This document shows positions 24,492-41,406 of a stretch of DNA of 64,000 nucleotides, piece by piece. The notes under the pieces were generated by a model. The model was not told the origin of the DNA and made no database searches. It saw nothing but the letters and a program-made list of their open reading frames with translations. The DNA is from Candidatus Babelota bacterium (GTDB lineage Bacteria; Babelota; Babeliae; Babelales; Vermiphilaceae), in contig JBMOLF010000001.1 in the NCBI GenBank assembly GCA_049325595.1, positions 1 through 64,000 on the forward strand, given 5' to 3'. A program made the translations under genes and the position numbers. The stretch's first letter is position 1. Every line of letters begins with the position of its first letter.

Positions 24492-26264
24492 ATGAAGCAT
24501 CTATTTAAACATCTTATCTATTTGTGTACTTTTATTTTTTATCCATTTTTACTCTATGCAACTCACAAATCATTTGTAGTAATTATTCCCTCATATAACA
24601 ACATTCAATGGTGTGAGCAAAACTTACGTTCGGTGTTTGGACAAGAATACGACAATTATCGCGTAATATATGTCAACGATTGTTCTGATGATGGCACTAA
24701 AGAACGAGTTGAACAGTTGGTTGACCAACTTGGTCAAAAACATAGATTCATGATGATCAATAACACCACACGCCGAGGCGCCATGGCAAATTGGTTCATG
24801 GCCGTATGGTTGTGCGAACCACACGAAGTGGTGGTAAGTTTAGATGGTGATGATTGGTTTGCGCATGAGCGTGTGCTTACCTATTTAGATTCTGTATATC
24901 AAGATCCTGAGGTATGGATGACCTATGGACAATTTATTATCCACAACAACAATCAAATTGGCTGGTGTAGACAAGTTTCTTCAGAAACCATTGAGAAAAA
25001 TCAATTTCGTGACGATGCCTGGGTTACTTCTCATTTAAGAACTTTTTATGCAGGTCTTTTTCATGGCATCCCCAAAGAAGATTTCATGGTAAATGGCCAA
25101 TTTTATCAATCAGCTGCTGATCTTGCTATTATGTATCCGTTATTAGAAAGAGCCGGCAAACATAGTCGCTTTATTCCTGAAATTTTGTATGTGTATAATC
25201 GCATTAATCCAATAAATGATGAACGCGTAAATTATAATTTACAAACTAATCTTGGCATTTATATTCGCGCACAAAAAAGACACCAACCAATCGAGCGATT
25301 TGATGACGCTACCGAACAACGCACCATTTATATTCAAAAAGGATTGTGGGGTTGTTTGTTTGATATTAATTCTCATCACAATCGCGATAACTGTTTATAC
25401 CCTACTTATTTACTTCGCATTGAAATGGCAAAAAAAGGATACCGTTTAGTAGAAACAGATACTATTGTTGGTCATCATAACGCACATGCTATTGTTTGCT
25501 TTGATGTACCAATGGCAGAACTGGAGCGTTTACCAGAATATCCAACAGAAAAATTATATTTGTTTTTGTGGGAACCACCATCAGTTTCACCTCATAATTA
25601 CAATCAAGCTTTCCATTATCCATTTGCTAAAGTTGCTACCTGGATGGATGAATTGGTAGATGGTAAAAAATACCATAAAATGTATTACCCGGTTCGCAAT
25701 GAAGTTATTAAAGATGTTGTTCCTTTTGAACAAAAAAAATTGGCAACCATGATTGCCTTTAATAAAAATTCAGGCCATCCTCGACAACTCTATGGCCAAC
25801 GTGCAGAGCTCGTAAATTTTTTTGAGCACTATCATCAAGAAGATTTTGATATTTACGGCAACTGGTGGCCACAGCATTACAAAACTTATAAAGGAACGGT
25901 AAAGAGCAAAGTAGATACGCTAAAACATTATAAATTTGTATTTGCCTACGAAAACATCGAGGGCATATCAGGTTATGTTACTGAAAAAATGTTTGATGTG
26001 TTTTGGGCTGGAGCTGTTCCCGTGTATTGGGGCGCAGACAATATTGAACAATATGTTCCTAAAAATTGTTTTATTGATCGGAGAGATTTTGCCGATAACG
26101 AACAATTGTATCAGCATCTTAAAAACATGAGCAAAGAAACCTATGAGCAATACCTTGTTAATATCAAAAATTATCTTGCATCATCTCAATCTACAATGTT
26201 TAGTCCACTCAATTTAAGCAACGTATTTAGCCAAATGGTTTTAAATGAACCATTATCAGCATAG
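24492..26264 (+). CDS. Bifunctional GT2 + GT10 (fucosyltransferase-like) fusion with signal peptide
   Basis: VIIPSYN, NDCSDD, LDGDDW (GT2); LWEPP, YKFVFAYEN, GYVTEK, PVYWGA (GT10); start moved to MKHLFK, downstream of the promoter. Confidence 0.88.
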   Translation: MKHLFKHLIYLCTFIFYPFLLYATHKSFVVIIPSYNNIQWCEQNLRSVFGQEYDNYRVIYVNDCSDDGTKERVEQLVDQLGQKHRFMMINNTTRRGAMANWFMAVWLCEPHEVVVSLDGDDWFAHERVLTYLDSVYQDPEVWMTYGQFIIHNNNQIGWCRQVSSETIEKNQFRDDAWVTSHLRTFYAGLFHGIPKEDFMVNGQFYQSAADLAIMYPLLERAGKHSRFIPEILYVYNRINPINDERVNYNLQTNLGIYIRAQKRHQPIERFDDATEQRTIYIQKGLWGCLFDINSHHNRDNCLYPTYLLRIEMAKKGYRLVETDTIVGHHNAHAIVCFDVPMAELERLPEYPTEKLYLFLWEPPSVSPHNYNQAFHYPFAKVATWMDELVDGKKYHKMYYPVRNEVIKDVVPFEQKKLATMIAFNKNSGHPRQLYGQRAELVNFFEHYHQEDFDIYGNWWPQHYKTYKGTVKSKVDTLKHYKFVFAYENIEGISGYVTEKMFDVFWAGAVPVYWGADNIEQYVPKNCFIDRRDFADNEQLYQHLKNMSKETYEQYLVNIKNYLASSQSTMFSPLNLSNVFSQMVLNEPLSA

Positions 26265-26271
26265 GAGTAAT

Positions 26272-27180
26272 ATGAAGAATTATGTCGCGTTGTTTTTGTT
26301 TGTGATAAGTTTTGTGCATGCACAAGAACCGTTACATTTTTGTACTGCCTCTGATAGTCGATATTTTAATTGTCTTATTAATTTAATTGGCTGTTTACAT
26401 AAACATAATTTTGATCAAATTGGCACCATTGCAGTATTTGATCTTGGTATGACGGCTGAGCAAAAAGAACACGTATCACGCATTGCCAAAGTAAGCATAC
26501 ATGACGTTGAAAAAGTACATCCCGATATTATCACCCCCATGCAAACTACGCATTGGGGAAAAATGGTACCTGGATGGTATGCATGGAAAGCAGTAATCAT
26601 TAAACAAGCGCTTGATATGGTAGATTGTGTGTTATACATCGATGCAGGAACGACTATTTACAAACCTCTTGATGATTTATTTAAGCACATTCGCCATGCT
26701 GGTTACTTTTTTCATAATGGCTCACCCTGGTGCATTCAACAAGAAACTACACAATATGTCATCAACAAATTTGATCTTGCAAGCTCTGAAAAAAAATGGT
26801 TATTAGATGAAGACATTAAAGGCCTCGAGGCTGGGTTTATGGGGCTAACAAGACGGGTATATGATTCTTTTGTAATGCCCGCATATCAATTGGCGCATGA
26901 TTTACGAAATTTTGCCGATGATGGTAGCTGCCGGGGTGGATTTGGCAATTGCCGCCATGATATTCCCATATTTTCTATGATCGCTCTTCTTAATGGATTA
27001 ACAATTTATCATCATTTTAAACAACCATGCCAAACCTTATGGCTCGATACTGATGAAGGAAAAATACCATTTCATATCGCGTGCAATCCACAAGATCGTA
27101 CATCACAAACGCATGTTTATTGCTCACGCATGGATGTATCGGGAATACAAGAAAATATACAAGCTATTCGCTTAAAATAA
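26272..27180 (+). CDS. Putative GT-A fold glycosyltransferase (DUF1647-like) with signal peptide
   Basis: AGGAG RBS before MKNYVALFLFVISFVHA; TASDSRYF, FDLG, YAWKAVII, LYIDAG, CRHD. Confidence 0.65.
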   Translation: MKNYVALFLFVISFVHAQEPLHFCTASDSRYFNCLINLIGCLHKHNFDQIGTIAVFDLGMTAEQKEHVSRIAKVSIHDVEKVHPDIITPMQTTHWGKMVPGWYAWKAVIIKQALDMVDCVLYIDAGTTIYKPLDDLFKHIRHAGYFFHNGSPWCIQQETTQYVINKFDLASSEKKWLLDEDIKGLEAGFMGLTRRVYDSFVMPAYQLAHDLRNFADDGSCRGGFGNCRHDIPIFSMIALLNGLTIYHHFKQPCQTLWLDTDEGKIPFHIACNPQDRTSQTHVYCSRMDVSGIQENIQAIRLK

Positions 27181-27197
27181 CCAATAAAGGAAATACT

Positions 27198-27854
27198 ATG
27201 AAACGCACTTTTTTATACACATTCTTAATTTCAGGATCGTTACACGCTTACGAGCCTAAAGCTCATGAACAGTGGTGGCATGCAAATTGTACTGAAAAAA
27301 TACCCTTATACAGACAGTGGTATGGCGATGCAGATATAAAAGAGCGTACTTTTATATGCAAATACCTTAAAGACAAGCAATATCAATCAATTCTTGATGT
27401 CGGCTGTAGTTTATGTTCTTTATTCTTTGCGATAAAAAAAGAAAAAGTTGCTATTGATTACACGGGACTTGAAGTAACAAAAGCTTTTGTTGATCGTGCT
27501 GCTAAGTTTGGTATTCCCGTAATATATGGCTCAGTAGAAGAATTGCCATGCCAAGATAATAGCTATGATTGTATTTACATGCGCCATGTACTTGAACACT
27601 TAGAATATTATGAAAAAGCTATTACTCACATGATTCGAGTAGCCAAAAAAGAGGTAATTATATCGTTCTTTAAACACCCTAACAACTGGATGCCTGACAC
27701 TATTGAATTGGTAAAAGTTGATTCCATGCCTTTGTACCATAATCAATATAATAAACTTAAGATTGATACGTTTGTAAAACAAAATCCTAAAGTTGCTTCA
27801 TTAAAATGGGATTATATTGGTAACGATTATGCATTATGCATAACTCTTAAGTAA
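27198..27854 (+). CDS. Class I SAM-dependent methyltransferase with signal peptide
   Basis: MKRTFLYTFLISGSLHA; ILDVGCS, ELPCQDNSYD, RHVLEH. Confidence 0.85.
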   Translation: MKRTFLYTFLISGSLHAYEPKAHEQWWHANCTEKIPLYRQWYGDADIKERTFICKYLKDKQYQSILDVGCSLCSLFFAIKKEKVAIDYTGLEVTKAFVDRAAKFGIPVIYGSVEELPCQDNSYDCIYMRHVLEHLEYYEKAITHMIRVAKKEVIISFFKHPNNWMPDTIELVKVDSMPLYHNQYNKLKIDTFVKQNPKVASLKWDYIGNDYALCITLK

Positions 27855-27861
27855 AAAACAT

Positions 27862-27887: not shown

Positions 27888-27899
27888 TCTTTGGTAATT

Positions 27900-28634
27900 T
27901 TAGTTTTTAAAATAGCGATCAAACTCATCACACCAGCAACGTAACATTTCTTGTTCGGTTGCATCTACTAAACTTTCACGTAATAATTCTTTTGCTTGTG
28001 CAGCAAGCACTTGCCCGGCCATATCTTTTTTCTTTTTAGCACGCACAATAATATTTGGGCACAATTGCCATTGGGTGTATTCAAACGAAATATCTTCAAA
28101 ACCCACCGCTGAAAGTACATGTTTAAACTTTTGCGCATACCACCCATCCCAATGCACTGCCCAATGTGCTTCATGGGAGCCAAAAATATGGCGTAAAGTA
28201 CTTTGTTTTTGAACATACGAATAAGAATCATTCATAAGAATATGCATACTTCGCTCAAAATCTGGTGTTTCAATAATTAAATCACCGTCATTTTCAAGCC
28301 AGGTATGCCAATTACACAACAAAGCTAGAGCAACTGAACGACTAAAATGCTCAAACATATGATGTGATCTGATTTCTTTTATACTATTTGCCGGCAAATT
28401 AAGATGAGAAATGTCAGCATGTATATCGGCGGCAATCTGTTTTTGAACTGTCTGTTCTGATTGAGGATAATCAATATTTATATACCCATCAAACTTTATT
28501 TGACCACAGCCTAAGTGTAATTTTATAGGATGCGAGTAGGCGGTAATATCAAATGAATAGTGAGCAGAAGATTGATTAACAATACCAGTAGTAACGCACA
28601 GCAAAGTTATTAATAGAGGTATTAATGGTAACAT
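27900..28634 (-). CDS. SAM-dependent methyltransferase (type 11-like) with signal peptide
   Basis: KLHLGCG, GYINID, SHHMFEHF, LIIETPD. Confidence 0.85.
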   Translation of the reverse strand: MLPLIPLLITLLCVTTGIVNQSSAHYSFDITAYSHPIKLHLGCGQIKFDGYINIDYPQSEQTVQKQIAADIHADISHLNLPANSIKEIRSHHMFEHFSRSVALALLCNWHTWLENDGDLIIETPDFERSMHILMNDSYSYVQKQSTLRHIFGSHEAHWAVHWDGWYAQKFKHVLSAVGFEDISFEYTQWQLCPNIIVRAKKKKDMAGQVLAAQAKELLRESLVDATEQEMLRCWCDEFDRYFKN

Positions 28635-28646: not shown

Positions 28647-29462
28647 TTAATTAAATAGGTTAGTAAGTCGTTGATAAGAAGGTTTTGCCAAAATTTTATG
28701 CATTAAACTCAATTGCAATTGGTGATCGATGCGATGATCGCTAATAGGATTTGCATTATTGTATATATACAAGATTTCATTAATAAAGCGATAACGATCA
28801 CCAGCCATTTCAATCATTGGTGCCATCATCGCTTTATCCCACGTCATCATTAAAAAGTTGCCATCATCATCACACAAATCTTTTTGAGCGATGCGTTTAA
28901 ATAAGCCCGCGTAAAATGTTCTTAAATGCGACATTGGTAAATTTTGAAATCGTCTAAAAGCATTATTTTTTACTACCCAAGACGGAAAATCTTCACAAAA
29001 TCCACGGTGCCCTGTTGGATATTCTTGATATTGGCCAAAAGTAAGCCACACATTATTATCTTGATAAACTTCATTTAAAAATGATAACACATAAGGATGT
29101 GACAACCAATCATCACCATCGAGTGTTAAAATAATTTCTTCATCACGACAACTGTGAATGGCATGATATAAGTTATATGTTGCACCATGACGTTGCTCAT
29201 TATTAATCAACGTCACCCTATGATTCATCTTATGGCTTGCAATACAATCTAAGACCAAGTGATAAGTTTTATCCGTGGAACAATCATTAATATAAATAAC
29301 ACGATAGTTAGTATAATTTTGTGCAAAAACAGAGGCTAAATTATTTTGGCACCATTGTGCATTGTTATAAGAAGGAATTACAATCACAAATGGTTTTTCT
29401 GATTTGTTGTTAGCCTGACATAAAAAAATAAATGATAATAAGATCATCCATAAATGCTTCAT
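28647..29462 (-). CDS. GT2 family glycosyltransferase with signal peptide
   Basis: VIPSYNN, INDCSTD, LDGDDW, SHLRTFYAGLF; paralog of the 24492 N-domain and of 32275. Confidence 0.9.
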   Translation of the reverse strand: MKHLWMILLSFIFLCQANNKSEKPFVIVIPSYNNAQWCQNNLASVFAQNYTNYRVIYINDCSTDKTYHLVLDCIASHKMNHRVTLINNEQRHGATYNLYHAIHSCRDEEIILTLDGDDWLSHPYVLSFLNEVYQDNNVWLTFGQYQEYPTGHRGFCEDFPSWVVKNNAFRRFQNLPMSHLRTFYAGLFKRIAQKDLCDDDGNFLMMTWDKAMMAPMIEMAGDRYRFINEILYIYNNANPISDHRIDHQLQLSLMHKILAKPSYQRLTNLFN

Positions 29463-29617: not shown

Positions 29618-30370
29618 ATGAGGCATCGTATTTTATTTAGTTTTATAATTCTTACTCTTTTAAACGTGTTCAACTTACAAGCCACCAAAAAATCAATTGG
29701 CTTATTAATTGTCGCTACGGGTAAATATATTCAATTTGTTCCACCATTAATTGAATCAGCACGCAAATATTTTTGTGTTGATCATACCATACATTACTAT
29801 GTATTTACCGATGGTACTATGAACACTGGCCAAGATACCACATTAATTTTCCAATCACGCTTAGGCTGGCCATATGATACCCTAAAACGTTTTTCTATGT
29901 ACGCTCAACACGCTAACCGCTATTGCCACCATGATTATTTATTTGCACTTGATGCTGATATGCAATTTGTTGATTATGTTGGTTCAGAAATATTATCTGA
30001 TCGGGTAGCAACATTACATCCTTGTTTGTTAAATCAACGCGGCACGTATGAAACACGTAATTGTTCAACAGCTTATGTTGCACCATACGAAGGTACCTAT
30101 TATTTTGCTGGTGGTTTTAATGGTGGGAGTACTACAGAATTTATTCGTATGGCCCAAACTATTACTGCTAACATAGAAAAAGATTTGGAGCATAATTTTA
30201 TAGCACTCTGGCACGATGAAAGCCATGTTAATCGGTACTATATTGATAACGAACCCACCTGTATTTTATCACCCGATTATTGTTATCCAGAAGGATGGGA
30301 TTTACCTTATCACCCGCGCCTGCTTGCCTTATTAAAAGATCATAAAACATTTCAACAAGGAGCTATATGA
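29618..30370 (+). CDS. GT6 family (ABO/alpha-1,3-Gal(NAc) transferase-like) glycosyltransferase with signal peptide
   Basis: IGLLIVATGKY, YYVFTD, LDAD (DxD), YYFAGGFNGG, WHDESHVNRY, LSPDYCY. Confidence 0.92.
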   Translation: MRHRILFSFIILTLLNVFNLQATKKSIGLLIVATGKYIQFVPPLIESARKYFCVDHTIHYYVFTDGTMNTGQDTTLIFQSRLGWPYDTLKRFSMYAQHANRYCHHDYLFALDADMQFVDYVGSEILSDRVATLHPCLLNQRGTYETRNCSTAYVAPYEGTYYFAGGFNGGSTTEFIRMAQTITANIEKDLEHNFIALWHDESHVNRYYIDNEPTCILSPDYCYPEGWDLPYHPRLLALLKDHKTFQQGAI

Positions 30371-31317
30371 AAAAGTTATTGTTAACTCTGGGTATTATAA
30401 GCGCACCATTAATCGCACAAAAAACTATTTATGTATATGCCCCCGGATGGGATATTGCCCAATACTTTGCGGCTGTTGGTGTAACCAAAGAATTTAATGC
30501 ATATGATATTACATTTAAACAAGTTTCTTCTGCACATGCTATTGCCCCGCATGAGCAAGCATTATTTTTTGATATCGATCCTGCAGCTCAATCTGCCTAT
30601 GCTGCGCTCTCTCCAGAAAATTGCATTTTATTTTTATGGGAACCGCCAACGGTAAAACCCCATAACTATGACAAGCGCTATCATAATTTTTTTAATAGGA
30701 TCTACACCTGGAATGATACGCTTGTTGATAAGATAAAATATTTTAAAGTACATTACCCGGTTCGTCATGATATGCGTCCTGCAAGTCGTACCTTTGCTCA
30801 AAAAAAACTGTGTGTCATGGTCGCTGCTAATAAACGGTCAAATCATGAGTTTGAATTATATACTCAACGCGCCGCAACAATACACTATTTTAATCAAAAT
30901 CATCCTGATGAATTTGATTTATATGGTTTTGATTGGCCGCATTCATTGCGCGTATATAAAGGAGTAATTAATGATAAACTTGAATGCGCAAGCGCGTATA
31001 AGTTTAGTATTGCTTATGAAAATTTAACAAACGTGCCGGGATATATTACCGAAAAAATATTTGATTGTTTTATATCAGGTTGTGTACCTATTTATTGGGG
31101 AGCGCCTAATATAACTGATTACATACCACAATCATGTTTTATTGATCGCAATAATTTTTCATCACAGGAAGAGTTGTATGAGTATATTTCAACTATGAGC
31201 GAAGAAACTCATCAAAAATATATTAAAGCAATTCAAGAATTTTTAATGAGTGACGCCGCTCATAAATTTAGCCCTCAATTTTTTGTTGAGCTACTTAAAT
31301 CAATCTATCTTACTTAA
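30367..31317 (+). CDS. GT10 family fucosyltransferase-like protein with signal peptide
   Basis: LWEPP, YKFSIAYEN, GYITEKIFD, VPIYWGA; ATGA overlap with the GT6 gene. Confidence 0.88.
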   Translation: MKKLLLTLGIISAPLIAQKTIYVYAPGWDIAQYFAAVGVTKEFNAYDITFKQVSSAHAIAPHEQALFFDIDPAAQSAYAALSPENCILFLWEPPTVKPHNYDKRYHNFFNRIYTWNDTLVDKIKYFKVHYPVRHDMRPASRTFAQKKLCVMVAANKRSNHEFELYTQRAATIHYFNQNHPDEFDLYGFDWPHSLRVYKGVINDKLECASAYKFSIAYENLTNVPGYITEKIFDCFISGCVPIYWGAPNITDYIPQSCFIDRNNFSSQEELYEYISTMSEETHQKYIKAIQEFLMSDAAHKFSPQFFVELLKSIYLT

Positions 31318-32179
31318 TTTCAGGAATATAGGCCATATGAGCAGATTTATTATCAACAAGGTATAACTTTTGCCAATCGATTTTTTTTCCTTGTTCAAAT
31401 AATGCAATCTGTTCATCTGGCTCAAGCATATTCATGTTGCGATTTGCCCCATCTCTTTGTACTTGGTTAAGAGGCAGGTTTACTATCTTTGATGCGTAAT
31501 AACAAAGACCAATTCGTTGCGATACCGCACCCGCACGCATTGACCATAATCCTTCAAGCGAATTAGGAGTATAATAAGGCATATCATTAAACACTGGTAT
31601 CACATCAGACTTACGATAAATGGTCATATCAACGGTATTTGGATACCCCCAATCATATTCACCACTCGCAATAGTCCAAGAATATACATCTGGAGCACAT
31701 TCATGCACTGGTGGCACGCGTTGTGGTTTATTCATGGTGTAGCAATAATCTAAATGCAAACCAAGTCGTAAATAAAAACCATACGCATTCATTTCTTGCA
31801 TTAAATCAATAGCATGATTCATATCAATAAAATCTTTGATAATAATGTCATCAACTGCAAAAACCACATAATCAGCACTTGATTCAATTAATGCACGATG
31901 AGTTAACAGTTTAAAATCTGCATGAGGATTAGATGACTGAGGCAAAAATTGTACATGTGGGAATTCTGATGCAATTTTGTTGTAGCATCGCTCTGCACGA
32001 TCAGTAGTAGTGCGGTAAATAACTTTAATGCGCGAAAGGCCGGTAATATAATGCTCAACCGATTCTAAAAGTGCTTGTATTTGTAATGGCCTATTAAATG
32101 AGAAAATAATAAGATCAATATGGTTATTGGCACTGGCTATAAAACTTATACATACCATAACTAAAGCAAATATACGCAT
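31310..32179 (-). CDS. Putative GT-A fold glycosyltransferase with signal peptide
   Basis: IFSFNRPLQ..ALLES, VFAVDD, FYLRLG, DWGYP; paralog of 34248; start at MRIFALV after AAGGA. Confidence 0.65.
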   Translation of the reverse strand: MRIFALVMVCISFIASANNHIDLIIFSFNRPLQIQALLESVEHYITGLSRIKVIYRTTTDRAERCYNKIASEFPHVQFLPQSSNPHADFKLLTHRALIESSADYVVFAVDDIIIKDFIDMNHAIDLMQEMNAYGFYLRLGLHLDYCYTMNKPQRVPPVHECAPDVYSWTIASGEYDWGYPNTVDMTIYRKSDVIPVFNDMPYYTPNSLEGLWSMRAGAVSQRIGLCYYASKIVNLPLNQVQRDGANRNMNMLEPDEQIALFEQGKKIDWQKLYLVDNKSAHMAYIPEIK

Positions 32180-33126: not shown

Positions 33127-34092
33127 CTATCTATGCGCAACAATTTCATAGGAAGGCATAACATGCAATGATACATGGTGTGGTTGGCAATATACCAATG
33201 GATACTGACTTCTTATGGCATCCATAACTAAGGTGTGCCCTACAAATTTAAAATTATCACCCCACCCATGTAGTTGGCCTGAAATATAGCAAAGAGGTGC
33301 TTGAAAGAATTTTTTATCAACAATCATTTGTTGCGTGTTACATGATGATTCAGATAACGCAAACGTAGAAATAAATAAATCTGCACTCAAAGAAATTTCT
33401 GGAACCATAAATACCGGAATCAAATGAATTGCACCTTTTTCAAAAGATTCTGGTATGCGATCGTGTAAAATTACTTCTACATCAGGCATGGTAGCTTTCA
33501 GGAAAAAATATTGCAACGCTAATAATTCCGGCAAATCAATAAGATATAGGGTTGTTTCAGGCATTATCTGCTTAAAAACACTGGCCAAATTACCATAGCC
33601 ACTACCTACTTCCACAATTGAATTTATCGATTCATTAGGCCAGTACTCTAAAACTTTTGCTGCATAATATAAATGGCCTAAACAGTTACTTGAACAATTA
33701 AATTCTTTACAACAACGATCAAGCCCTAAAAAGTCAGACTCGTGAAAAGCTGATAGTTTTTCTTTGGTTTTTGCACTAATGCAATCACGCAAGTATAACA
33801 TTTCATACGATTGTACCACACTTATTCCTTGGCGAACCATGGTATTCCAAATACAATAATGTCGAGTAAAAAAACGATCGGGGTTGCCCAGCAAAATAGT
33901 TTTTACTTCTTGTTTGGTACTCTTCCAAATATCGTGGCAATAGTTACTTTCATGTTGATCAAGACCGGTTGTATGTAAAAAATTACAAAGATTTTTATAT
34001 TTTTCTTGCATATCATACCACAGAGAATCAACATAATTAGTTTGAATTTTAGCTACAAAAAGCAGCAATAATAAACTGATCTGTTTTTTCAT
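33127..34092 (-). CDS. Putative sugar O-methyltransferase with signal peptide
   Basis: IVEVGSGYG, YLIDLPE, DLFISTFALSE; start at MKKQISLLLLLF after AAGGAG. Confidence 0.8.
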   Translation of the reverse strand: MKKQISLLLLLFVAKIQTNYVDSLWYDMQEKYKNLCNFLHTTGLDQHESNYCHDIWKSTKQEVKTILLGNPDRFFTRHYCIWNTMVRQGISVVQSYEMLYLRDCISAKTKEKLSAFHESDFLGLDRCCKEFNCSSNCLGHLYYAAKVLEYWPNESINSIVEVGSGYGNLASVFKQIMPETTLYLIDLPELLALQYFFLKATMPDVEVILHDRIPESFEKGAIHLIPVFMVPEISLSADLFISTFALSESSCNTQQMIVDKKFFQAPLCYISGQLHGWGDNFKFVGHTLVMDAIRSQYPLVYCQPHHVSLHVMPSYEIVAHR

Positions 34093-34247: not shown

Positions 34248-35132
34248 ATGAAGCGCCAATTTTTACTCTCTTTGCTTTTTGTAAGCATAATGACATCGTG
34301 TCTTGCTCAAAAAGCAGATATGGTTATTTTTTCTTTTGACCGACCGTTACAACTCTACGCATTACTTGAATCGGTAGATACGTATGTAACAGGGCTGGAA
34401 ACGATTAATGTTATTTATCGTGCAAGTTCAGATGAATTTGCTTACGCATACGATTGTATACAGACTGATTTCCCACATGTAATATTTATAAAACAAGGTG
34501 CTAACCCTCGCCAAGATTTTAAGCCTCTTACTATACAGGCAGTAGAAAACACTCCTTCTCAATACATTATTTTTGCCGTCGACGACAATATCATAAAAGA
34601 TTACGTTGATTTAGAAGAATGTATCGAGTTGCTCAACCAAACAAATGCCTATGGATTTTACTTGCGACTCGGCTTAAATATATCCCATTGCTACACGCAA
34701 AACCAACCACAAATAATTCCCGCTCATCAACCAGTAAATAATGAAGTTTATGCATGGATATTCAAAGATGGTAGTTATGATTGGGGATACCCAAATACCG
34801 TTGATTTAACCTTATTTAAAAAAGAAGAAATTTTACCGACCATACGTACCTTATCATTTTATTCACCCAATGTATTTGAATGTGTATGGGCACAAAAAGC
34901 AGACGCTATTATGCAGCATATCGGTCTTTTTTTTGCTGAATCAAAAATTGTAAATCTACCACTTAATATGGTGCAAGAAGATTGGCATAATCGTAACCAA
35001 CAAGAACTTTTACCAGCTCAACAACTTGAGTTATTTTTCGCAGGTAAAAAAATAGATATTAAGCCTTTGTATAAAATTGCAAATCAATCACCCCATATGG
35101 AATATTGTCCTACCTTGATTGATCGTAATTAA
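34248..35132 (+). CDS. Putative GT-A fold glycosyltransferase with signal peptide
   Basis: IFSFDRPLQLYALLES, IFAVDD, FYLRLG, YDWGYPNTVD; close paralog of 31310. Confidence 0.65.
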   Translation: MKRQFLLSLLFVSIMTSCLAQKADMVIFSFDRPLQLYALLESVDTYVTGLETINVIYRASSDEFAYAYDCIQTDFPHVIFIKQGANPRQDFKPLTIQAVENTPSQYIIFAVDDNIIKDYVDLEECIELLNQTNAYGFYLRLGLNISHCYTQNQPQIIPAHQPVNNEVYAWIFKDGSYDWGYPNTVDLTLFKKEEILPTIRTLSFYSPNVFECVWAQKADAIMQHIGLFFAESKIVNLPLNMVQEDWHNRNQQELLPAQQLELFFAGKKIDIKPLYKIANQSPHMEYCPTLIDRN

Positions 35133-35956
35133 AAAAGTTCTTTATGCGGTAATTTAGGATTAAAATAAATTACCGCTGTAGAAACATTTGAAATAGTGTG
35201 AATAAAAAAATCGGTACGTGCTAAAATTAAAACTTCGATGAGAACTTCTCGCCCTGCTTGCGTTCTATTAGATTGCTCGGGATTATAATGAATGGGAAAT
35301 CCATTTGTTGATCGACCAGCCGCAAAAGAAATAACCGGTTTATTAAGTGCAGTTTTTGCGGCCTGTAAAATTTCTTCTTCGTCTGTTGCTACAAAATATT
35401 GGTCTGCATCATACCTATTAGTGCAATCAAAAATTGTTTGTAGAGGAACATGCGGACGTTCAGAATTTTTATCAGTCCGTCTGATATGAATACCAATAGT
35501 TTTTTTACCTTTTATATGCTGTTCATAATAATCATCTACAACTTTTAATATGGATTCATTTACGTATATCCACTTATTAATGAGCTCATTAATTTCTGCT
35601 CGTTGATGGCTACACGGTGGTATAGCGATCAAATTATGACCATCTTTATCAAAATAACTGTTGTGAACATAATCACCATTTTCATAATTCTGCTCAGAGA
35701 CTGGTTTAAAAAAACATGGCCATGCATTTGCATTATTTTTACATTCAACATCACGTTCATCAAAATACAATGAACTCTTATCCCAATATATCACCGGAAC
35801 TTTATTATTTTGCTCGCACCATATTAAATTATTAAGCGCACCAAAAAAAGATGAAAAAAAACCACACCCATGTTGACCAATCACAAACTTTTCATGTGTT
35901 TGAGCAATAAGAGATAAAGAACATATAAAACTAATTAATAAAAGTTTTTTTAACAT
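35129..35956 (-). CDS. NodZ/GT23-like (O-fucosyltransferase superfamily) fucosyltransferase with signal peptide
   Basis: GFFS, IGIHIRRTDK (GDP-Fuc motif I), FVATDE (motif II), SNVS (motif III). Confidence 0.85.
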   Translation of the reverse strand: MLKKLLLISFICSLSLIAQTHEKFVIGQHGCGFFSSFFGALNNLIWCEQNNKVPVIYWDKSSLYFDERDVECKNNANAWPCFFKPVSEQNYENGDYVHNSYFDKDGHNLIAIPPCSHQRAEINELINKWIYVNESILKVVDDYYEQHIKGKKTIGIHIRRTDKNSERPHVPLQTIFDCTNRYDADQYFVATDEEEILQAAKTALNKPVISFAAGRSTNGFPIHYNPEQSNRTQAGREVLIEVLILARTDFFIHTISNVSTAVIYFNPKLPHKELF

Positions 35957-36027: not shown

Positions 36028-37005
36028 TTAATACAGGCATATAAGCGCAGGATTTACATATATTTTGTCATATCCTTTGCAAATCATTGATGCATGGAGT
36101 GTCGTATGCTCACATACAACGGGTAAATCATAACCACTATTCGGTATGAAAACTAATGGTAATGGTCTTTGATCACTATTGATAAGTAATGTATAAATGC
36201 GGTAATAAAGATGATTAGTCGCCATGTTCTTATTGAGTATCTGATCACTAAGATGTTCAAGATCTTTGGTAACATACCCACAATACCAACAATCTTTTAA
36301 TGCATTTCGTTTATACAATGCAATACCACCAAAAGCAGAATACACTTTTTGTAAAGGTAAGCTGGGTGCAAATGCAATTGGCTGCTCAAGGCGAATACGC
36401 CAAAATTCTTCACCCAATAATTCAGGACCAAGAGGAAATTGATCATCCCGATAAGCAAAACGATCGTAATGGTAATGATCACCATTTACGCCATTTGCCG
36501 CAATACAATCCCATTGCTCAGTACAATTGAATGATGCAATTACATCGTTTACCTGCCAACCTATCCTAAAATCAAGATCTGTCATTATAATATAGTTATA
36601 ATCCGCAAACAGATCGCTCATTGCTTGTTTGAGCACTTGATTGCGCGCATAGGCAATCAGTTCCATACGACACGGTGCTTTATCGCGCAAAGCATGGCTT
36701 TTGGTCCGATTACTTAACTGCTGGTCAGAAAGATATTCAGATATGATAGTTACTCTTGGATTTTTAATCATCCATGCGTTTAATACATCTAACGTGTTAT
36801 CAGTTGAATTGTTTTCATAAATGATAACCTGATAATCCTTAAAATAATCTCCTAATTGCTCAATCTTTTGCATCATATTTGGCAAACATGATGCAATATT
36901 TTTACCAACACCTAAAATTAATAGTTTTTCATTTTTTGGATTAATAGCTGCGTTCAGGTACCCAACAAAACAACCAAATATAAAAATAAATTTGAAATAG
37001 TTCAT
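36028..37005 (-). CDS. CAP59/CMT1-like (GT69-like) glycosyltransferase with signal peptide
   Basis: IYENNSTDNT, IAYARNQVL, TDLD, YDRFA, VYSAFGGIALY, CEH, NP; start at MNYFKF. Confidence 0.7.
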   Translation of the reverse strand: MNYFKFIFIFGCFVGYLNAAINPKNEKLLILGVGKNIASCLPNMMQKIEQLGDYFKDYQVIIYENNSTDNTLDVLNAWMIKNPRVTIISEYLSDQQLSNRTKSHALRDKAPCRMELIAYARNQVLKQAMSDLFADYNYIIMTDLDFRIGWQVNDVIASFNCTEQWDCIAANGVNGDHYHYDRFAYRDDQFPLGPELLGEEFWRIRLEQPIAFAPSLPLQKVYSAFGGIALYKRNALKDCWYCGYVTKDLEHLSDQILNKNMATNHLYYRIYTLLINSDQRPLPLVFIPNSGYDLPVVCEHTTLHASMICKGYDKIYVNPALICLY

Positions 37006-37006: not shown

Positions 37007-37807
37007 TTAATCCTGTTGCGCATATTGTTTTAATTGCTCTAGAATGTAGGCTGCTTGCGCATGATTTTTGCACCCATGCAGCATGTAATAATGTATATCT
37101 GGTTGCGTATACCCATGCTCGTAAGGAATTCTATTTTCGCGCCATGCTTGTATGCTTTCAAAATATGGATCATAAACTGGCAGATATTGAGTCGCACCAT
37201 ATTTCCAAAGCAAAACATTTAATATAGTTTCATCAAAGTTTGGCGCCTTACGACCATATTTTAAGCATGCCTCGTACCATTCTTGTAAAAATGCTCGGCA
37301 AGTGTGTGAAAATAGAATATGCGCATGCACATACGGCATTGATTTATGGGTAACTCCCATTAACTTCATAATCTGATATTGATTTTCAGGATCTTTCGGA
37401 TGTAAAGGACATAGCGGATAGTCTTGTATGGTTTTACATACATCAAATAAGGTATCGACTCCTTTATTTAAAATATCATCTGCTTCGATATAGACCCCAT
37501 AATCCAGCCCTGATTCTAAAATAATACGCACTTTAATAAAAAAAATATGTACTTTGCTTAAATCAACATCAAGTCTACGTTTTATTAAACGAGGATATTG
37601 TGCCGTATCAAAAGGAATTTCGGCATTAATACCATACGCAATTACCGGTCGTGTTGAAAATTCATGTGCACTATCAAGGGTAACTTTAAGCAAATCAAAA
37701 TAATTACTGGTAGCAAAAGTAACAAAACCTTCGGATGGTTGTGTATGCGCATGCATATGCATACCAAGTACACATAAAATAATTACTATATATTTTTTCA
37801 TGTTCAC
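37007..37807 (-). CDS. Putative GT-A fold nucleotide-sugar transferase with signal peptide
   Basis: YIEADD, FLQEW, DETILNVLLW, LHGCK. Confidence 0.6.
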   Translation of the reverse strand: MNMKKYIVIILCVLGMHMHAHTQPSEGFVTFATSNYFDLLKVTLDSAHEFSTRPVIAYGINAEIPFDTAQYPRLIKRRLDVDLSKVHIFFIKVRIILESGLDYGVYIEADDILNKGVDTLFDVCKTIQDYPLCPLHPKDPENQYQIMKLMGVTHKSMPYVHAHILFSHTCRAFLQEWYEACLKYGRKAPNFDETILNVLLWKYGATQYLPVYDPYFESIQAWRENRIPYEHGYTQPDIHYYMLHGCKNHAQAAYILEQLKQYAQQD

Positions 37808-37816
37808 TCTTTCTGT

Positions 37817-38596
37817 TTATTCAATGCCTAATAAATGAACAAGCTCATTCAATTGCTGTTCATAGTAATCATAGGGACGCAACATATGGCAATCTGTGTA
37901 ATATCCTGATGATACTAATTGTGCATCATAACCCCACCATCCACGGTCGACACGTTTATCAACATGGTGACCGAGCTTTACTAATCGACCCGTTTGTGCA
38001 TGCCATCTATTGAGCGTATGATACAGTATTTGTTGATCAGTCGTCCAACCAAGTCCTAATGCATACCATTGTTTGATAATTTCAGGAATTTGATGTACTG
38101 AATCAACATTGAAAATCTCTTTAAATATGCTTCCTTTAGCAACATTGTAGCACATAGGATATTCGCACATATCTTGTCCTGCAAAAGCACCATCTTTGAA
38201 GGTAACAAAACAATCATCAGGAATATCTTTTACACTCTTTGCAAAATATTCTTTGCTTAAAGGAATCATATCCATATCAGAAATTATACATACTTCATCT
38301 TCAAAATAAGCCGGTGCTAATAACCGAATTACCTGCGCTTGAAAAGAAGTTGGAATACCTTCTATGGGTTCAAAACGAATTACCTCACCAAGAGTTTCAT
38401 CAACTACTACATTAGCTGGTGCAACCAAAAATAGAGTAGGTTGTACTCCTACTAGTTGTTTCCACGTTTTGGCAACAATCGGCCAAAATGGTAAATACAT
38501 AGGATTTGCATCAGATGCGATAATAACCCGGTCTATATGCAACGCTTGTATGCAAGGGGCTATTAACAATAGCCCCATAAATAATATGCTTTTCAT
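37817..38596 (-). CDS. Putative GT-A fold glycosyltransferase with signal peptide
   Basis: YLPFWP, AQVIRL, ISDMDM (DxD), WTTDQ, DCH..RP; cluster context. Confidence 0.55.
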   Translation of the reverse strand: MKSILFMGLLLIAPCIQALHIDRVIIASDANPMYLPFWPIVAKTWKQLVGVQPTLFLVAPANVVVDETLGEVIRFEPIEGIPTSFQAQVIRLLAPAYFEDEVCIISDMDMIPLSKEYFAKSVKDIPDDCFVTFKDGAFAGQDMCEYPMCYNVAKGSIFKEIFNVDSVHQIPEIIKQWYALGLGWTTDQQILYHTLNRWHAQTGRLVKLGHHVDKRVDRGWWGYDAQLVSSGYYTDCHMLRPYDYYEQQLNELVHLLGIE

Positions 38597-39312
38597 TACT
38601 TTTCACCTAATTGTAGTGGCGCATTGGCAAAATTAACGTATAAATCATCAAAGCCACCAAACTTGGTAATAAAGGTAAAACCTTTTGATTCCAATATTTT
38701 TTGTACATCAGTAGTGTTTTCATTATTCTCAACACTGATTACAAAAATAGGTATGTGATCAAAATCAATCGATTTAATAATATCAAGCTCAGAACCTTCT
38801 GTATCGATTGATAAATAATCAACACGCGTAATGCCATGCTCATCCATAGTTTTATTAAAGGTAATTACGGGTATATCAATGATGGTGTAATAGCTGCCTG
38901 GCGTTGTTGCTAAATACAAGTTCACCACTTTCCACCGATGTGGTTCTTCATCAAAAAATTTCTTGAGACCACTTAATTCTTCTAATTTTGCTATATCAAC
39001 AAATTGCATCATGCCTTCTGTTCCTGCCATGGCAGCTTGTATGCACGTACAATTACGTGCGGCTTTTAAATCAGCAAAAATTCGGGGAACTGGTTCGATG
39101 CATAACCCTTTCCAACCAAGCTCTTTTTCAAAAAAATAACTATTGCTAAAGCAAACACCATTATAAGCACCTATTTCAACAAACGTGCCGTTGCGCATAT
39201 TCTTAAAATAATGTTCATTCACGAACTTATCTTGGCCAACTTGGCTATAATATTCTGCAACACATGATGAAGCTATAAGCAATAAACTTATTACTATTTT
39301 TTTCATAGACAA
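38596..39312 (-). CDS. FkbM family methyltransferase with signal peptide
   Basis: YSQVGQD, FVEIGAYNG..SNS, GLCIEP, DYLSIDTEGSE. Confidence 0.92.
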   Translation of the reverse strand: MSMKKIVISLLLIASSCVAEYYSQVGQDKFVNEHYFKNMRNGTFVEIGAYNGVCFSNSYFFEKELGWKGLCIEPVPRIFADLKAARNCTCIQAAMAGTEGMMQFVDIAKLEELSGLKKFFDEEPHRWKVVNLYLATTPGSYYTIIDIPVITFNKTMDEHGITRVDYLSIDTEGSELDIIKSIDFDHIPIFVISVENNENTTDVQKILESKGFTFITKFGGFDDLYVNFANAPLQLGEK

Positions 39313-39318
39313 TCTTTC

Positions 39319-40611
39319 TTAAGCTGCAGCAGCCGCTATTTGTGTTTGCTGTTGAGCAATCAAGGATTTGCGATCTTCATAGAATTTAAGATTTTTCTTT
39401 AAATGTTCCATCTCTGGTCTATTTTCAAGTGCACAACGAACACCTTTTTCTCCCATGTCATATTCACCGATATACCAGGAAGAAATACCAACCACATCGT
39501 GACGCTCAAAATCATAAATGTTTTTATCTACAAACAATACATCACTAGTTGGATACGGTTGTTCACATGCACGGTGAGCAAAAAGATATGCCAGTGCATG
39601 CTCTCCTTTTGCCAAATAATGTTGAGCAATTTTTACCAATGGTTCTGTTCGGCATGATCTATAAGAATATGCTTTTAAATAATATTCAAGCGCTTTGGCC
39701 CAGGTATATTCGTCTTTTTCTTCTTTTTGCGCAAGCCATTCAGTAATTTGCGCTAAGCGATACCAGGTAACAAAATTCTCTTCGTACCAGCCAGGCAATG
39801 TGCTACGGTGTTTATAGTATTTATGTGCATTCTCAAGATCACCTAAACATGCATACGTTTGCGCAAGGTAAAATGTAGTACGCGGATCATTAGGGTGCTC
39901 ATTATGATATTTGAGTAATAAATCTAAATCACGTTTCCAACGAGCCATAGATTTATCGGCACCAGTTTTTGATGGCCGCAAATCAAAATATATTTCACCA
40001 GGCACACGATACGGAGTTCCTTCCATAATTGTTTCATGCACAACCCCACCAAAACGTAACTGGGCACTCTTGCGCAATAAACGTTGGGTATAAAAATCAA
40101 TGCTTGGATTCATGATACGCACTAAATAAGACGATTCTATAATATTATCTTTGTGCTCTTGGCAATAATCCATTAATGCCGGCATATTAACCATGTACCA
40201 CTCAGCATCGGGCATCATTAAAAACACTGCATTAGGGAATTTTTCTTCTGCAAGTTCTAGGCCTCTATTACGCGATGTTGCAAAATCAACAAAAGGTTCT
40301 TGAGCAATAGCTGCATTAGCAATACCATTTTCGGTAAAAAATTCTTCTGCTTTTTCAATTGTTTTATCAGTCGATCCCGTGTCGAATACAAAAAAACCAA
40401 GCGCACTTTTTTGTTCTTCACTTAATCCAACAATATATGATTCTAGGGTTGGTTTTATTACCGGTTCTTCGTCTTTGACCATAAGAACAACAACAAGCAT
40501 TAATTGATCGTACGATTTAAAACTATTCATAAATCGATTAGTTGCCCGTAATGTAAGCGGCACAAGGGCCAATAAGGTAATTAAAGACCAAATTCGTAAT
40601 AATATTTTCAT
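39319..40611 (-). CDS. GT2 glycosyltransferase with C-terminal TPRs (protein O-glycosyltransferase candidate), signal peptide
   Basis: MVKDEE, DTGSTD, DFATSRN, PDAEW, FGGVVHE, then PRTTFYLAQTY and further TPR-like helices. Confidence 0.85.
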   Translation of the reverse strand: MKILLRIWSLITLLALVPLTLRATNRFMNSFKSYDQLMLVVVLMVKDEEPVIKPTLESYIVGLSEEQKSALGFFVFDTGSTDKTIEKAEEFFTENGIANAAIAQEPFVDFATSRNRGLELAEEKFPNAVFLMMPDAEWYMVNMPALMDYCQEHKDNIIESSYLVRIMNPSIDFYTQRLLRKSAQLRFGGVVHETIMEGTPYRVPGEIYFDLRPSKTGADKSMARWKRDLDLLLKYHNEHPNDPRTTFYLAQTYACLGDLENAHKYYKHRSTLPGWYEENFVTWYRLAQITEWLAQKEEKDEYTWAKALEYYLKAYSYRSCRTEPLVKIAQHYLAKGEHALAYLFAHRACEQPYPTSDVLFVDKNIYDFERHDVVGISSWYIGEYDMGEKGVRCALENRPEMEHLKKNLKFYEDRKSLIAQQQTQIAAAAA

Positions 40612-40632
40612 CTTCTACTTTCCTTTTTTTTG

Positions 40633-41406
40633 TTATTCGTAATATGCGTAAATATCTCCCCACAGCAAATTGCCAATTTTGGGCAACTGTTGACTTCGTA
40701 GATCTTGTAATGTTGTTAATAACTCAGATGCTGATAGCCAGACAGAACTTACAAATTCAGTACTTTCTGCTATTACAAAATTAAATTTGGTATACCCCAG
40801 TTTTTGCAATCGTTCTAAACAGTTACGACTGTTATGCTCAGTTTCGCAGGCATACTCAAAAGAAATAAGTTGAATAGGATAAGATAATCCTTTAAGAACT
40901 TCATACTCAAAGTTTTCTACATCGATTTTGCAAAATACCGGCGTGCCATGTTTTTGTATCATATGATCTAATGTTGCAATGGGCACTTGAATAACTGTAT
41001 CCCACTTAAAACTGCCACAGCTACCATCAGAAAAGCGCGATTGCTCAATCCACTCACGTGAAAATGTTGAAAGGGTATCAGCATCGCACTGATAAAAAGG
41101 TAATACTCCTTCTTTTTCACCAATGGCAAGAGGCTCAAGCAAAATATGATCATTATTATTAAATCTATTTTTTAGATACCTTTGTAAATGTGGCTGCGGT
41201 TCAAAACAGACAACACGTGCACCTAAACTTGTCAACGATGCTGCTTTTTTCCCTTGGTGTGCACCAATATCAAATACAAGGTCACCGGTTTTAATAAATG
41301 GCTTTAAAAACTCAGAATATCCTATTGGATCAAATTGATCTTTGATGGTGTATGAAAAAATTATTGATGTGCTAAATAGTAAAATCCAAAGATATGATTG
41401 CTTCAT
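40633..41406 (-). CDS. FkbM family methyltransferase with signal peptide
   Basis: VFDIGAHQG, VVCFEPQP, TLD, KIDVENFEYEVLKG. Confidence 0.92.
   Translation of the reverse strand: MKQSYLWILLFSTSIIFSYTIKDQFDPIGYSEFLKPFIKTGDLVFDIGAHQGKKAASLTSLGARVVCFEPQPHLQRYLKNRFNNNDHILLEPLAIGEKEGVLPFYQCDADTLSTFSREWIEQSRFSDGSCGSFKWDTVIQVPIATLDHMIQKHGTPVFCKIDVENFEYEVLKGLSYPIQLISFEYACETEHNSRNCLERLQKLGYTKFNFVIAESTEFVSSVWLSASELLTTLQDLRSQQLPKIGNLLWGDIYAYYE

Follow-up and report, generated by a model that had tools for sequence, protein, structure and literature searches.

Positions 24492 to 41406 of the DNA analysed here, the first 64 kb of a 167-kb contig from a Dependentiae genome (JBMOLF010000001.1, assembly GCA_049325595.1; these 64,000 nucleotides are called the window), are filled by 18 back-to-back open reading frames (ORFs), comprising 13 glycosyltransferase (GT) and five methyltransferase genes, several of them assigned under the curated Pfam cut-offs. 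Seventeen of the 18 products pass our rule for an N-terminal export leader, and the enzymes for GDP-fucose synthesis encoded elsewhere in the genome carry leaders as well. At a probability that we put at roughly 55%, the cluster would encode a series of Leloir enzymes that are exported by the Sec route, draw on host-supplied donors and glycosylate fibres which the bacterium itself exports.

Genome and setting of the cluster

The genome comprises 1.286 Mb in 24 contigs and is 95% complete with 0.6% contamination; all genome-wide absences given below refer to this 95%-complete assembly. The bacterium is diderm, and its relatives multiply in the cytoplasm of protists. A class II tRNA synthetase gene, sodA, rapZ, glmS, rpsI and gyrB flank the glycosylation island on the same contig, indicating that the island is chromosomal. 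The GT6 enzyme of the window shares 77% identity with its counterpart in 'Candidatus Dependentiae bacterium Noda2021'; the other named matches are metagenome-assembled genomes (MAGs) of Dependentiae. Noda2021 is an isolate that infects Vermamoeba and is found within the host cell with mitochondria around it (PMC8812299). GT6 was present in 55 of 201 sampled genomes of the phylum, mostly in the window's own family (38/66).

Identity of the 18 genes

A preliminary description, made from the letters of this DNA, had read the cluster as 18 glycosyl- and methyltransferases after correction of the start sites. This reading is borne out: Pfam names 13 of the 18 genes and the other five can be placed by fold or domain context, while each leader-yielding start that had been chosen is backed by a Shine-Dalgarno (SD)-like AGGA or GGAG at normal spacing. 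Besides the GT2 plus GT10 fusion gene, Pfam GT2 is matched three more times. The genes are given below; leader scores are 9-residue Kyte-Doolittle means within the first 30 residues, and a score of at least 2.2 was taken as a leader (our own rule).

24492..26264, + strand: bifunctional GT2 plus GT10 (fucosyltransferase-type); Pfam GT2 1.9e-17, GT10 3.1e-18; SD start; leader MKHLFKHLIYLCTFIFYPFLLYA, score 2.52
26272..27180, + strand: GT-A-fold GT (GT8/DUF1647-like); no Pfam match; ESM Atlas TM-score 0.62-0.72; leader MKNYVALFLFVISFVHA, score 3.12
27198..27854, + strand: S-adenosylmethionine (SAM) methyltransferase (Methyltransf_11); Pfam 8.8e-13; weak leader MKRTFLYTFLISGSLHA, score 1.61, below the threshold; 4/7 related-locus homologues pass
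27900..28634, - strand: methyltransferase-like (weak Methyltransf_11); Pfam 3.6e-4; uncharged 28-residue N-terminus, score 2.86; 8/10 homologues pass
28647..29462, - strand: GT2; Pfam 7.7e-22; leader MKHLWMILLSFIFLCQA, score 3.08; 73/83 best-matching related-locus homologues pass
29618..30370, + strand: GT6 of the DXD minimal-domain (PaGT6) type, with leader; Pfam 2.5e-49; invariant D112-A-D114-M
30367..31317, + strand: GT10, fucosyltransferase-type; Pfam 2.1e-15; leader MKKLLLTLGIISAPLIA, score 2.48; 5/5 homologues pass
31310..32179, - strand: GT-A-fold GT without Pfam model; phmmer 2e-95 to the paralogue 34248-35132; leader score 3.36; alternative start 32185
32275..33084, + strand: GT2 with leader; Pfam 2.1e-17; score 2.58
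33127..34092, - strand: probable SAM methyltransferase (weak O-methyltransferase); Pfam Methyltransf_2 0.0028, below the cut-off; leader MKKQISLLLLLFVA, score 3.30
34248..35132, + strand: GT-A-fold GT of a new family; AlphaFold2 (AF2) and Foldseek; invariant D112 D113; 38/42 related-locus family members with leader
35129..35956, - strand: fucosyltransferase-like (FUT8/NodZ superfamily, weak); FUT8_N_cat 0.0066 and NodZ 0.0096, both below the cut-off; leader score 2.68; 5/5 homologues pass
36028..37005, - strand: GT-A enzyme like fungal Golgi mannosyltransferases (CAP59/Anp1); CAP59_mtransfer 4.9e-6, GT2 5.6e-6, Anp1 3.4e-4; leader score 2.94
37007..37801, - strand: glycosyltransferase-like domain without Pfam model, with leader; homologues fused to GT or methyltransferase domains
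37817..38596, - strand: GT-A-fold DXD-type GT of an apparently undescribed family; AF2 and Foldseek; leader MKSILFMGLLLIAPCIQA
38596..39306, - strand: FkbM methyltransferase; Pfam Methyltransf_21 2.7e-20; leader MKKIVISLLLIASSCVA, score 3.34
39319..40611, - strand: GT2-like domain plus TPR region, with leader; GT2 1.9e-4 (also in the whole-genome search), TPR_14 0.0065; score 2.69
40633..41406, - strand: FkbM methyltransferase with leader; Pfam Methyltransf_21 6.3e-17; score 2.40

Sequence searches of the PDB with four single sequences (26272-27180, 34248-35132, 37007-37801 and 37817-38596) and with two profiles (A2, the alignment for 34248-35132, and A3) returned nothing useful, so fold searches were needed. 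The AF2 model for the paralogues 31310-32179 and 34248-35132 (pLDDT 92.7) matched the GT-A folds of SpsA, TarP, GnT-I and POMGnT1 in the PDB by Foldseek (E 5e-8, TM-score ~0.5), and the family alignment contains an invariant Asp-Asp pair. For 37817-38596 (pLDDT 94.3), Foldseek returned the folds of GTA/GTB (GT6), GT8 and B3GalT5 (GT31) at E ~1e-6; D107 and D109 are invariant in the alignment of this family, which has 202 homologues, with a Pfam domain in none of the 120 listed. The confidently modelled GT-A fold and the leader on almost every member suggest a glycosyltransferase family not described so far. The family of 37007-37801 is larger (322 representative clusters), and its members are found fused to GT2, GT25, GT34, Methyltransf_11, FkbM and Methyltransf_24 domains; among homologues of 225-360 residues, 31 of 84 have a leader or anchor and many others start directly at the conserved core.

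The GT6 enzyme 29618-30370 matches PF03414 with 168.2 bits (cut-off 25). Its 250 residues end in the catalytic domain, with no membrane-binding domain behind it, and contain D-X-D instead of N-X-N, with D112 and D114 invariant in 36 sequences. Two cysteines are conserved in the homologues (C53 in 93%, C222 in 100%); considered as a sign of an oxidising compartment, they do not decide between periplasm and host cytosol.

N-terminal leaders of the cluster proteins

The one protein below the threshold, the methyltransferase 27198-27854, is borderline at 1.61, and a later transmembrane segment occurs in none of the 18. The claim of the preliminary description that nearly all 18 carry export signals therefore stands as a prediction from hydrophobicity. 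Lys or Arg lies ahead of the hydrophobic run in 17 of the 18 proteins and is lacking in 27900-28634. The uncharged run, polar c-region included, spans 11-20 residues in 15 of the 16 correctly read genes and 28 residues in 27900-28634; the hydrophobic runs would mostly be too short for stable transmembrane anchors. In 16 rows the N side carries more positive charge than the 12 residues that follow the run, in two the charges are equal, and in none is the N side less positive; for two of the 16 rows the charge script had settled on a later run, but both are N-positive by eye. This balance predicts an N-in, C-out topology. An x-Ala cleavage-type site was recognised by eye in 15 of the 18 (for example VHA↓Q, CQA↓N, LIA↓Q and CVA↓E), and a script found a permissible site in 17, which is not always the most plausible one.

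Since hydrophobic N-termini could be an artefact of amino-acid composition, internal segments served as a control. Internal 40-residue segments passed the rule in 0-1 of the 18 cluster proteins and, genome-wide, in 16-26 of 639 proteins (2.5-4%), as against 370 of 639 N-termini, by which this artefact is ruled out.

Conservation of leaders in homologues and related loci

A leader is present in 118 of the 120 best GT6 homologues, the other two scoring 2.13 and 2.16, and in 108 of the 120 listed homologues of 37817-38596. The column entropy of the GT6 alignment is 3.10 bits in the leader versus 1.22 in the domain. The leader is thus kept as a feature while its sequence drifts, which argues that the leaders are functional; judged by these patterns, we take them to be real and under selection.

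Relatives of GT6 were found at 353 places in species-representative genomes, and the counts that follow cover the best 78 of them. By their labels, 19 of these loci belong to Dependentiae/Babeliales/TM6, 26 to Chlamydiota (including Parachlamydiaceae, Simkaniaceae and Rhabdochlamydiaceae), seven to 'Pseudomonadota' and four to Verrucomicrobiota, and 22 are unlabelled. Leader-like N-termini occur in 797 of their 1228 ORFs, with GT6 (72/79), the GT2 family (129/150), the family of 31310-32179 and 34248-35132 (38/42) and Fcl (12/13) among the bearers. The Noda2021 locus (L151) is fully syntenic, collagen-like genes being followed by the same GT order, and has a leader on all complete ORFs except the homologue of 27198-27854, which at 2.1 falls just under the rule.

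Two side observations concern these loci. The GT2-GT10 fusion 24492-26264 corresponds in Noda2021 to two ORFs of 330 and 250 residues (L151:4798-6578), the second without a leader; a frameshift, a sequencing error or a genuine split could each account for this. In addition, the seven Pseudomonadota-labelled loci (L154, L159, L169, L186, L202, L204 and L227) and the four Verrucomicrobiota-labelled loci (L167, L189, L193 and L195) resemble Dependentiae/Chlamydiota islands with leader-bearing Fcl-GMD-GT2-GT6, which may reflect mislabelled MAGs or a transfer of the island.

Leaders on the enzymes of GDP-fucose synthesis

The preliminary description had noted that the cluster lacks wzx, wzy, an initiating transferase and nucleoside diphosphate (NDP)-sugar genes. 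No such gene is found in the window; NDP-sugar genes are, however, present elsewhere in the genome (GMD, Fcl and RmlB/D-like). A GDP-fucose pathway, for which it had recommended a search, is encoded outside the window at C10:44918-48167, by genes for a GMD-like protein, Fcl and GMD, all leader-bearing. GMD (C10:47064-48167) matches PF16363 at 3e-157, has the Rossmann motif and is 68-75% identical to named GMDs, and Fcl (C10:46037-47053), in the textbook pathway an NADPH-dependent reductase, matches Epimerase at 1.2e-68. Directly before the two genes, at C10:44918-46024 (+), lies the second, divergent member of the GMD family (PF16363 3e-99), likewise with a leader, which may make another 6-deoxyhexose. 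RmlD-like and RmlB-like proteins with leaders are encoded at C9:73869-74807 and C9:76981-78084, respectively. The genes adjoining these tagged sugar-nucleotide genes encode further leader-bearing GT2, GT-D-fold and Methyltransf_24 proteins.

By comparison, GlmS, GlmU, GalU, a GT2 (C10:50583-51356) and a GT4 (C10:66804-67937) of the same genome have no leader and served as controls. GalU and GlmU are the only nucleotidyltransferases of their kind, no second NTP_transferase for GDP-mannose or similar being found in the genome.

A comparison with homologues for gain of the signal, also recommended in the preliminary description, gave a clear pattern for GMD. Among the best 120 homologues (68-98% identity), 29, including the 12 closest, have a hydrophobic leader of 17-35 residues. 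The other 91 start 7-15 residues before the GxxGQDG Rossmann motif and include every named GMD (Anaerocellum/Caldicellulosiruptor, Brevibacillus, Sporomusa, Nitrospiraceae and others). In a FastTree phylogeny of the catalytic domain only, the 29 leader-bearing sequences form one side of a single branch (support 96). The leader trait changes once on this tree versus a mean of 26.2 after shuffling, and none of 500 shuffles was as low. The leader-bearing GMDs thus form one clade among leaderless relatives, and normally cytoplasmic enzymes (GMD, Fcl and the RmlB/D-like proteins) have gained leaders in this lineage.

Leader load of the whole genome

A leader without a later transmembrane segment was scored in 536 of 1258 ORFs (43%), and the score distribution is bimodal. 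The export signals of the cluster consequently stand out less than the preliminary description had supposed: the cluster is one case of a phylum-wide leader habit, and what is special about it is the class of enzymes, not the rate. Among proteins of at least 200 residues without a later transmembrane segment, a leader-like N-terminus was seen in 370 of 639 (58%), an extreme predicted secretome even for this phylum. The 43% equals the share of 44% that is reported to have signal peptides in Chromulinavorax (PMC6561590). Of the 126 ankyrin proteins of Babela, 79 are reported to bear a signal peptide, with the amoeba cytoplasm as their presumed destination, the type II system being the sole secretion system reported (PMC4378268).

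Outside the window, 328 leader-bearing proteins have 200 residues or more, and 137 of these were searched with Pfam. Many of them depend on cofactors of the cytosol or on targets found in eukaryotes: there are four AAA ATPases, one adenylate kinase, one DOT1-like methyltransferase, one GNAT protein, an ADP-ribosylglycohydrolase and many ankyrin and leucine-rich repeat (LRR) proteins. SecA and some membrane-anchored enzymes passed the rule as well and count as false positives or anchors. The adenylate kinase lies at C9:88666-89313 (-), AAA ATPases at C1:115955-118351 (-) and the DOT1-like methyltransferase at C10:55442-56122 (-). Tagged enzymes of this kind, which depend on ATP or SAM, would make no sense in a sealed periplasm. 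They match the view, expressed in PMC4378268 and PMC6561590, that the host cytoplasm receives Sec-tagged proteins from Dependentiae.

Export machinery, transporters and lipid-linked routes

The genome encodes SecA, SecY, SecD, SecF, YidC, signal peptidase I, Lgt and DsbD, as well as TamB, OmpH, OmpA, two Omp85 proteins, two secretins, two platform proteins of the type II secretion system (T2SS-F) and a T2SS-C protein. Neither Bac_transf nor a Wzy_C/PglL-type ligase was found in the genome. Among the 60 proteins with at least four later transmembrane segments, 11 of which have no Pfam family, there is no Wzx, GT-C, Polysacc_synt or PMT protein; the sole polyprenyl-phosphate transferase is of the MraY type and the sole flippase is MurJ. 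A lipid-linked glycosylation route was rejected for this genome on account of the missing Bac_transf, Wzy_C/PglL, Wzx and GT-C. The genome was also searched for metK, which was not found.

The same 60 proteins include four transporters of the EamA/DMT family and two TLC transporters. The DMT superfamily includes the nucleotide-sugar transporters of eukaryotes; no Golgi-type nucleotide-sugar transporter was identified among the 60 proteins, the EamA proteins there being generic ones.

Collagen-like genes as candidate acceptors

The window contains 21 leader-bearing collagen-like genes, of which 13 lie at 7713-24335, seven at 41473-56760 and one at 146-1039. The two arrays on either side of the cluster are as follows.

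7713..24335, - strand: 13 leader-bearing collagen-like genes, candidate acceptors; Pfam Collagen in 13/13, BclA_C at E<=1e-3 in 8; G-X-Thr repeats
41473..56760, - strand: second array of seven leader-bearing collagen-like genes, one BclA_C-only gene and one gene of an unknown family; Pfam; leaders in 8/9

BclA_C is matched at E<=1e-3 in 11 proteins of the window, three of them above the 38-bit cut-off and one exactly at 38.0. Over all 21 collagen-like genes, Thr occupies position Y in 467 of 790 G-X-Y triplets (59%). G-X-Thr is the pattern of O-glycosylated BclA. In the present genome and in Noda2021, the collagen-like proteins are the likely acceptor, to judge from gene order and repeat type. 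Among the related loci, the Simkaniaceae locus L182 has a collagen-like gene of 1025 residues adjoining GT6-GT2. Collagen adjacency as a general rule was rejected, being seen in 4 of the 78 related loci, and is retained for the present genome and Noda2021 only.

The second array has two further features. At 41473-50441 (-), three large proteins combine a DUF5122 beta-propeller with a collagen stretch, one of them also with a BclA_C end, and 46151-48448 (-) has 131 G-X-Y triplets.

Proposed pathway

We propose that each of the 18 enzymes carries a cleavable signal peptide of the Sec type and is exported from the bacterial cytoplasm. The site of action would lie beyond the inner membrane, in a periplasm that small metabolites of the host can enter or, following type II secretion, on the cell surface. 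Donors and cofactors would be drawn from the host cytosol (UDP-sugars, GDP-mannose, NADPH and SAM), and export-tagged GMD and Fcl would turn GDP-mannose into GDP-fucose on the spot. A fucosylated, O-methylated glycan would then be assembled stepwise, with GT6 probably adding a blood-group-A-like GalNAc-(Fuc)-Gal element. Its most likely acceptor would be Thr at position Y of the Sec-exported collagen-like proteins that flank the cluster, and the outcome would be a coat of glycosylated fibres on the infectious cell.

Given the two GT10 domains, the FUT8/NodZ-like enzyme, the GDP-fucose genes, the five methyltransferases and the PaGT6-like GT6, it is reasonable to guess at a glycan that is fucosylated, methylated and A-antigen-like. 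Substrates of Sec are unfolded as they cross the membrane, and no lipid-linked route was found; glycosylation after export by exported Leloir enzymes seems the simplest logic. Considering that an exported Fcl would consume NADPH and that other tagged enzymes use cytosolic cofactors, the destination would share the small-molecule pool of the host cytosol. Three places of action come into question: the periplasm, made permeable by porins, of a bacterium that lies in the host cytoplasm; the bacterial surface; and, following type II secretion, the host cytosol.

A wider proposal, for which we see odds slightly short of even, extends this scheme beyond the present genome. Dependentiae and environmental Chlamydiota may have moved a complete NDP-sugar-dependent glycosylation pathway out of the cytoplasm, consisting of GDP-fucose and probably 6-deoxyhexose synthesis, over a dozen Leloir GTs and sugar methyltransferases. 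The host cytosol would be the metabolite pool of this pathway, and its product a carrier-free, A-like, fucosylated and methylated glycan on collagen-like fibres. Export-adapted genes, such as those of the leader-bearing GMD clade, would have spread as a shared tool kit.

Several points weigh against the proposed pathway. Export is predicted from our own reading of hydrophobicity, charge and cleavage sites; two genes show no N-over-C charge excess, and Lys stands right behind the likely cleavage site in some. At a background of 43%, the clustering of leaders alone is weak evidence. In the 78 related loci, leaders were scored in only 11 of 17 GMD and 11 of 18 RmlB-like proteins; several of the failures are truncated ORFs, and GMD or Fcl is genuinely leaderless in the related Dependentiae loci L172 and L180. 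NDP-sugars, NADPH and SAM in the periplasm are presumed, and the four EamA transporters could move donors instead. The structure of the glycan and its acceptor are read from family names only, several of the matches lying below the Pfam cut-offs. Finally, a general role of collagen as acceptor is questionable, a collagen-like gene being present in no more than 4 of the 78 loci.

Alternative explanations

The enzymes might instead be effectors directed at the host: exported by Sec and then released by type II secretion or in vesicles, they would act on host proteins or glycans in the host cytosol and not on the fibres of the bacterium. Toxins and effectors that are glycosyltransferases and draw on UDP-sugars of the host form a known class. 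The present genome encodes secretins and other T2SS parts together with leader-bearing DOT1-like, AAA, ankyrin and LRR proteins, and collagen-like genes are absent from 74 of the 78 related GT6 loci; in addition, Sec-tagged ankyrin proteins of Babela, for which only a T2SS is described, are held to reach the host cytoplasm (PMC4378268). We nevertheless consider this explanation unlikely. Thirteen GTs, five methyltransferases and NDP-sugar enzymes resemble a stepwise assembly line rather than a modifier that places a single sugar on host targets, and the cluster is set among 21 collagen-like genes in an order shared with Noda2021. Moreover, the characterised relative of GT6 needs a fucosylated disaccharide as acceptor (PMC3516806).

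A strictly Golgi-like, sealed periplasm, into which bacterial transporters would export NDP-sugars and SAM across the inner membrane, has lower odds still and appears improbable to us, even though the EamA/DMT-family and TLC transporters and the cytoplasmic GalU, GlmU and GlmS would suit it. If finished donors were exported, tagged GMD, Fcl and RmlB/D-like proteins would be pointless, and they would need NADPH outside. The lack of a detectable metK would make SAM host-derived in any case, and a second NTP_transferase for GDP-mannose was not found either. A sealed, transporter-fed, Golgi-like lumen fits worse because the synthesis of sugar nucleotides is itself exported, and for the same reason, the export tag on GDP-fucose synthesis including Fcl, the term 'Golgi-like' chosen in the preliminary description suits this system poorly. 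That description had also placed the enzymes outside the cytoplasm, acting on exported collagens or host targets with donors from dedicated transporters or the host. The place of action is partly supported, as the computed evidence agrees with it and export is a prediction; of the two sources of donors, supply by the host fits the exported GMD and Fcl and the missing metK, whereas dedicated transporters fit less well.

The least probable explanation, which we regard as very doubtful, is that nothing is exported and glycosylation is an ordinary cytoplasmic process, the hydrophobic segments being uncleaved anchors on the cytoplasmic face or artefacts of start sites or composition. Many bacterial GTs are indeed membrane-associated, the genome has a high AT content and many codons for Ile, Leu, Phe and Lys, and the leader of 27198-27854 is weak. 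Yet internal segments pass the rule in just 2.5-4% of proteins, SD sites stand at the starts, the N side is positive in 17 of the 18 proteins with the C flank more positive in none, and housekeeping sugar enzymes have no such segment. Cytoplasmic glycosylation would also have to precede the translocation of unfolded Sec chains. Furthermore, GMD and Fcl are soluble enzymes that need no anchor, yet they acquired the segment once and have retained it.

Comparison with known systems

In textbook bacterial glycosylation, the Leloir enzymes are cytoplasmic and finished glycans cross the membrane on a lipid. PglB/PglL oligosaccharyltransferases and lipid-linked glycans are the known bacterial means of glycosylating Sec-exported proteins outside the cytoplasm. 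Bac_transf, Wzy_C/PglL, Wzx and GT-C proteins, in contrast, were not found in the present genome, and the enzymes of the cluster are of the Leloir type, which need soluble nucleotide sugars.

The families GT6, GT10, FUT8-like and Anp1/CAP59-like are shared with the Golgi, as are an N-terminal hydrophobic segment and the non-cytoplasmic, here predicted, position of the catalytic domains. The leaders described here differ from those of the Golgi in being short and cleavable-looking, not type II anchors with stems, and the NDP-sugar synthesis enzymes are tagged too, whereas Golgi NDP-sugars are made in the cytosol and then imported.

Collagen-like surface fibres that are glycosylated, and that belong to particles entering phagocytes, are known from BclA-type glycoproteins of the Bacillus exosporium and from the collagen-like fibrils of giant viruses that infect amoebae. 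The window resembles these systems in its G-X-Thr repeats, its BclA_C-type ends and the location of the genes beside glycosyl- and methyltransferases. The enzymes of the BclA and giant-virus systems are not known to carry an export signal, assembly taking place in the mother-cell or host cytoplasm; here, fibres and enzymes are both Sec-tagged.

The closest precedent for the export principle is Chlamydia trachomatis, which secretes GlgA and other glycogen enzymes by type 3 secretion into the inclusion lumen, where host UDP-glucose is used (Gehre et al. 2016, PMC4829429). In both cases, normally cytoplasmic NDP-sugar enzymes are sent out of an obligate intracellular bacterium (in the present case by prediction) and a host pool is used. 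The Chlamydia system employs type 3 secretion, makes a homopolymer, glycogen, in a vacuole and receives UDP-glucose through a co-opted host transporter. The present genome, unlike it, has Sec-type leaders, 13 GTs and five methyltransferases, with NDP-sugar interconversion enzymes elsewhere; relatives of this bacterium live in the host cytoplasm and not in a vacuole, and the likely product would be a protein-linked hetero-glycan.

For GT6, the characterised relative is PaGT6 of Parachlamydia acanthamoebae, which, with Mn or Mg as the required metal, transfers GalNAc from UDP-GalNAc onto H-type (Fuc-alpha1,2-Gal) acceptors to give the blood-group-A structure (Thiyagarajan et al. 2012, PMC3516806). 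The same paper defines the clade of DXD minimal-domain GT6 enzymes (PaGT6 and cyanophage P-SSM2 type). Like PaGT6, 29618-30370 has a DXD motif (in its case DADM) and a minimal catalytic domain that no membrane-binding domain follows at the C-terminus; its identity to homologues labelled Chlamydiota is 47-58%. PaGT6 was expressed as a soluble fusion, and the consulted part of PMC3516806 mentions no leader peptide; the activity of 29618-30370 is a prediction.

The high signal-peptide load of Dependentiae is already published, and the export principle has its precedent in Chlamydia. The literature searched, including PMC6561590, PMC4378268 and PMC4776705 in part and without their supplements, contains no mention of export-tagged Leloir GTs, methyltransferases or GMD/Fcl in Dependentiae or Chlamydiae. 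If the proposed pathway is true, it would be a third way for obligate intracellular bacteria, in which soluble enzymes, including a sugar-nucleotide reductase that consumes NADPH, are exported and fed from host pools. It would explain how a 1.3-Mb genome without a lipid-linked route, whose relatives have no lipopolysaccharide genes, dresses its surface, and would assign a concrete function to part of the unexplained 'secretome' of Dependentiae, which amounts to 40-plus percent. It would also tie collagen-like fibres and fucosylated, A-antigen-like glycans to uptake by amoebae, in parallel to the fibrils of giant viruses. The proposal is directly testable because the close relative Noda2021 grows in Vermamoeba.

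Additional observations

At its right edge, the island is bordered by genes for an ATP-grasp enzyme at 56870-58165 (-) and for GlmS at 58240-60084 (-), both apparently cytoplasmic; GlmS has no leader, and the N-terminus of the ATP-grasp enzyme, which at 2.21 scores just over the rule, is probably not a leader either. Elsewhere in the genome, at C9:68129-69373 (+), an FAD enzyme of the D-arabinono-1,4-lactone-oxidase type with a leader is encoded near a third cluster of glycan enzymes.

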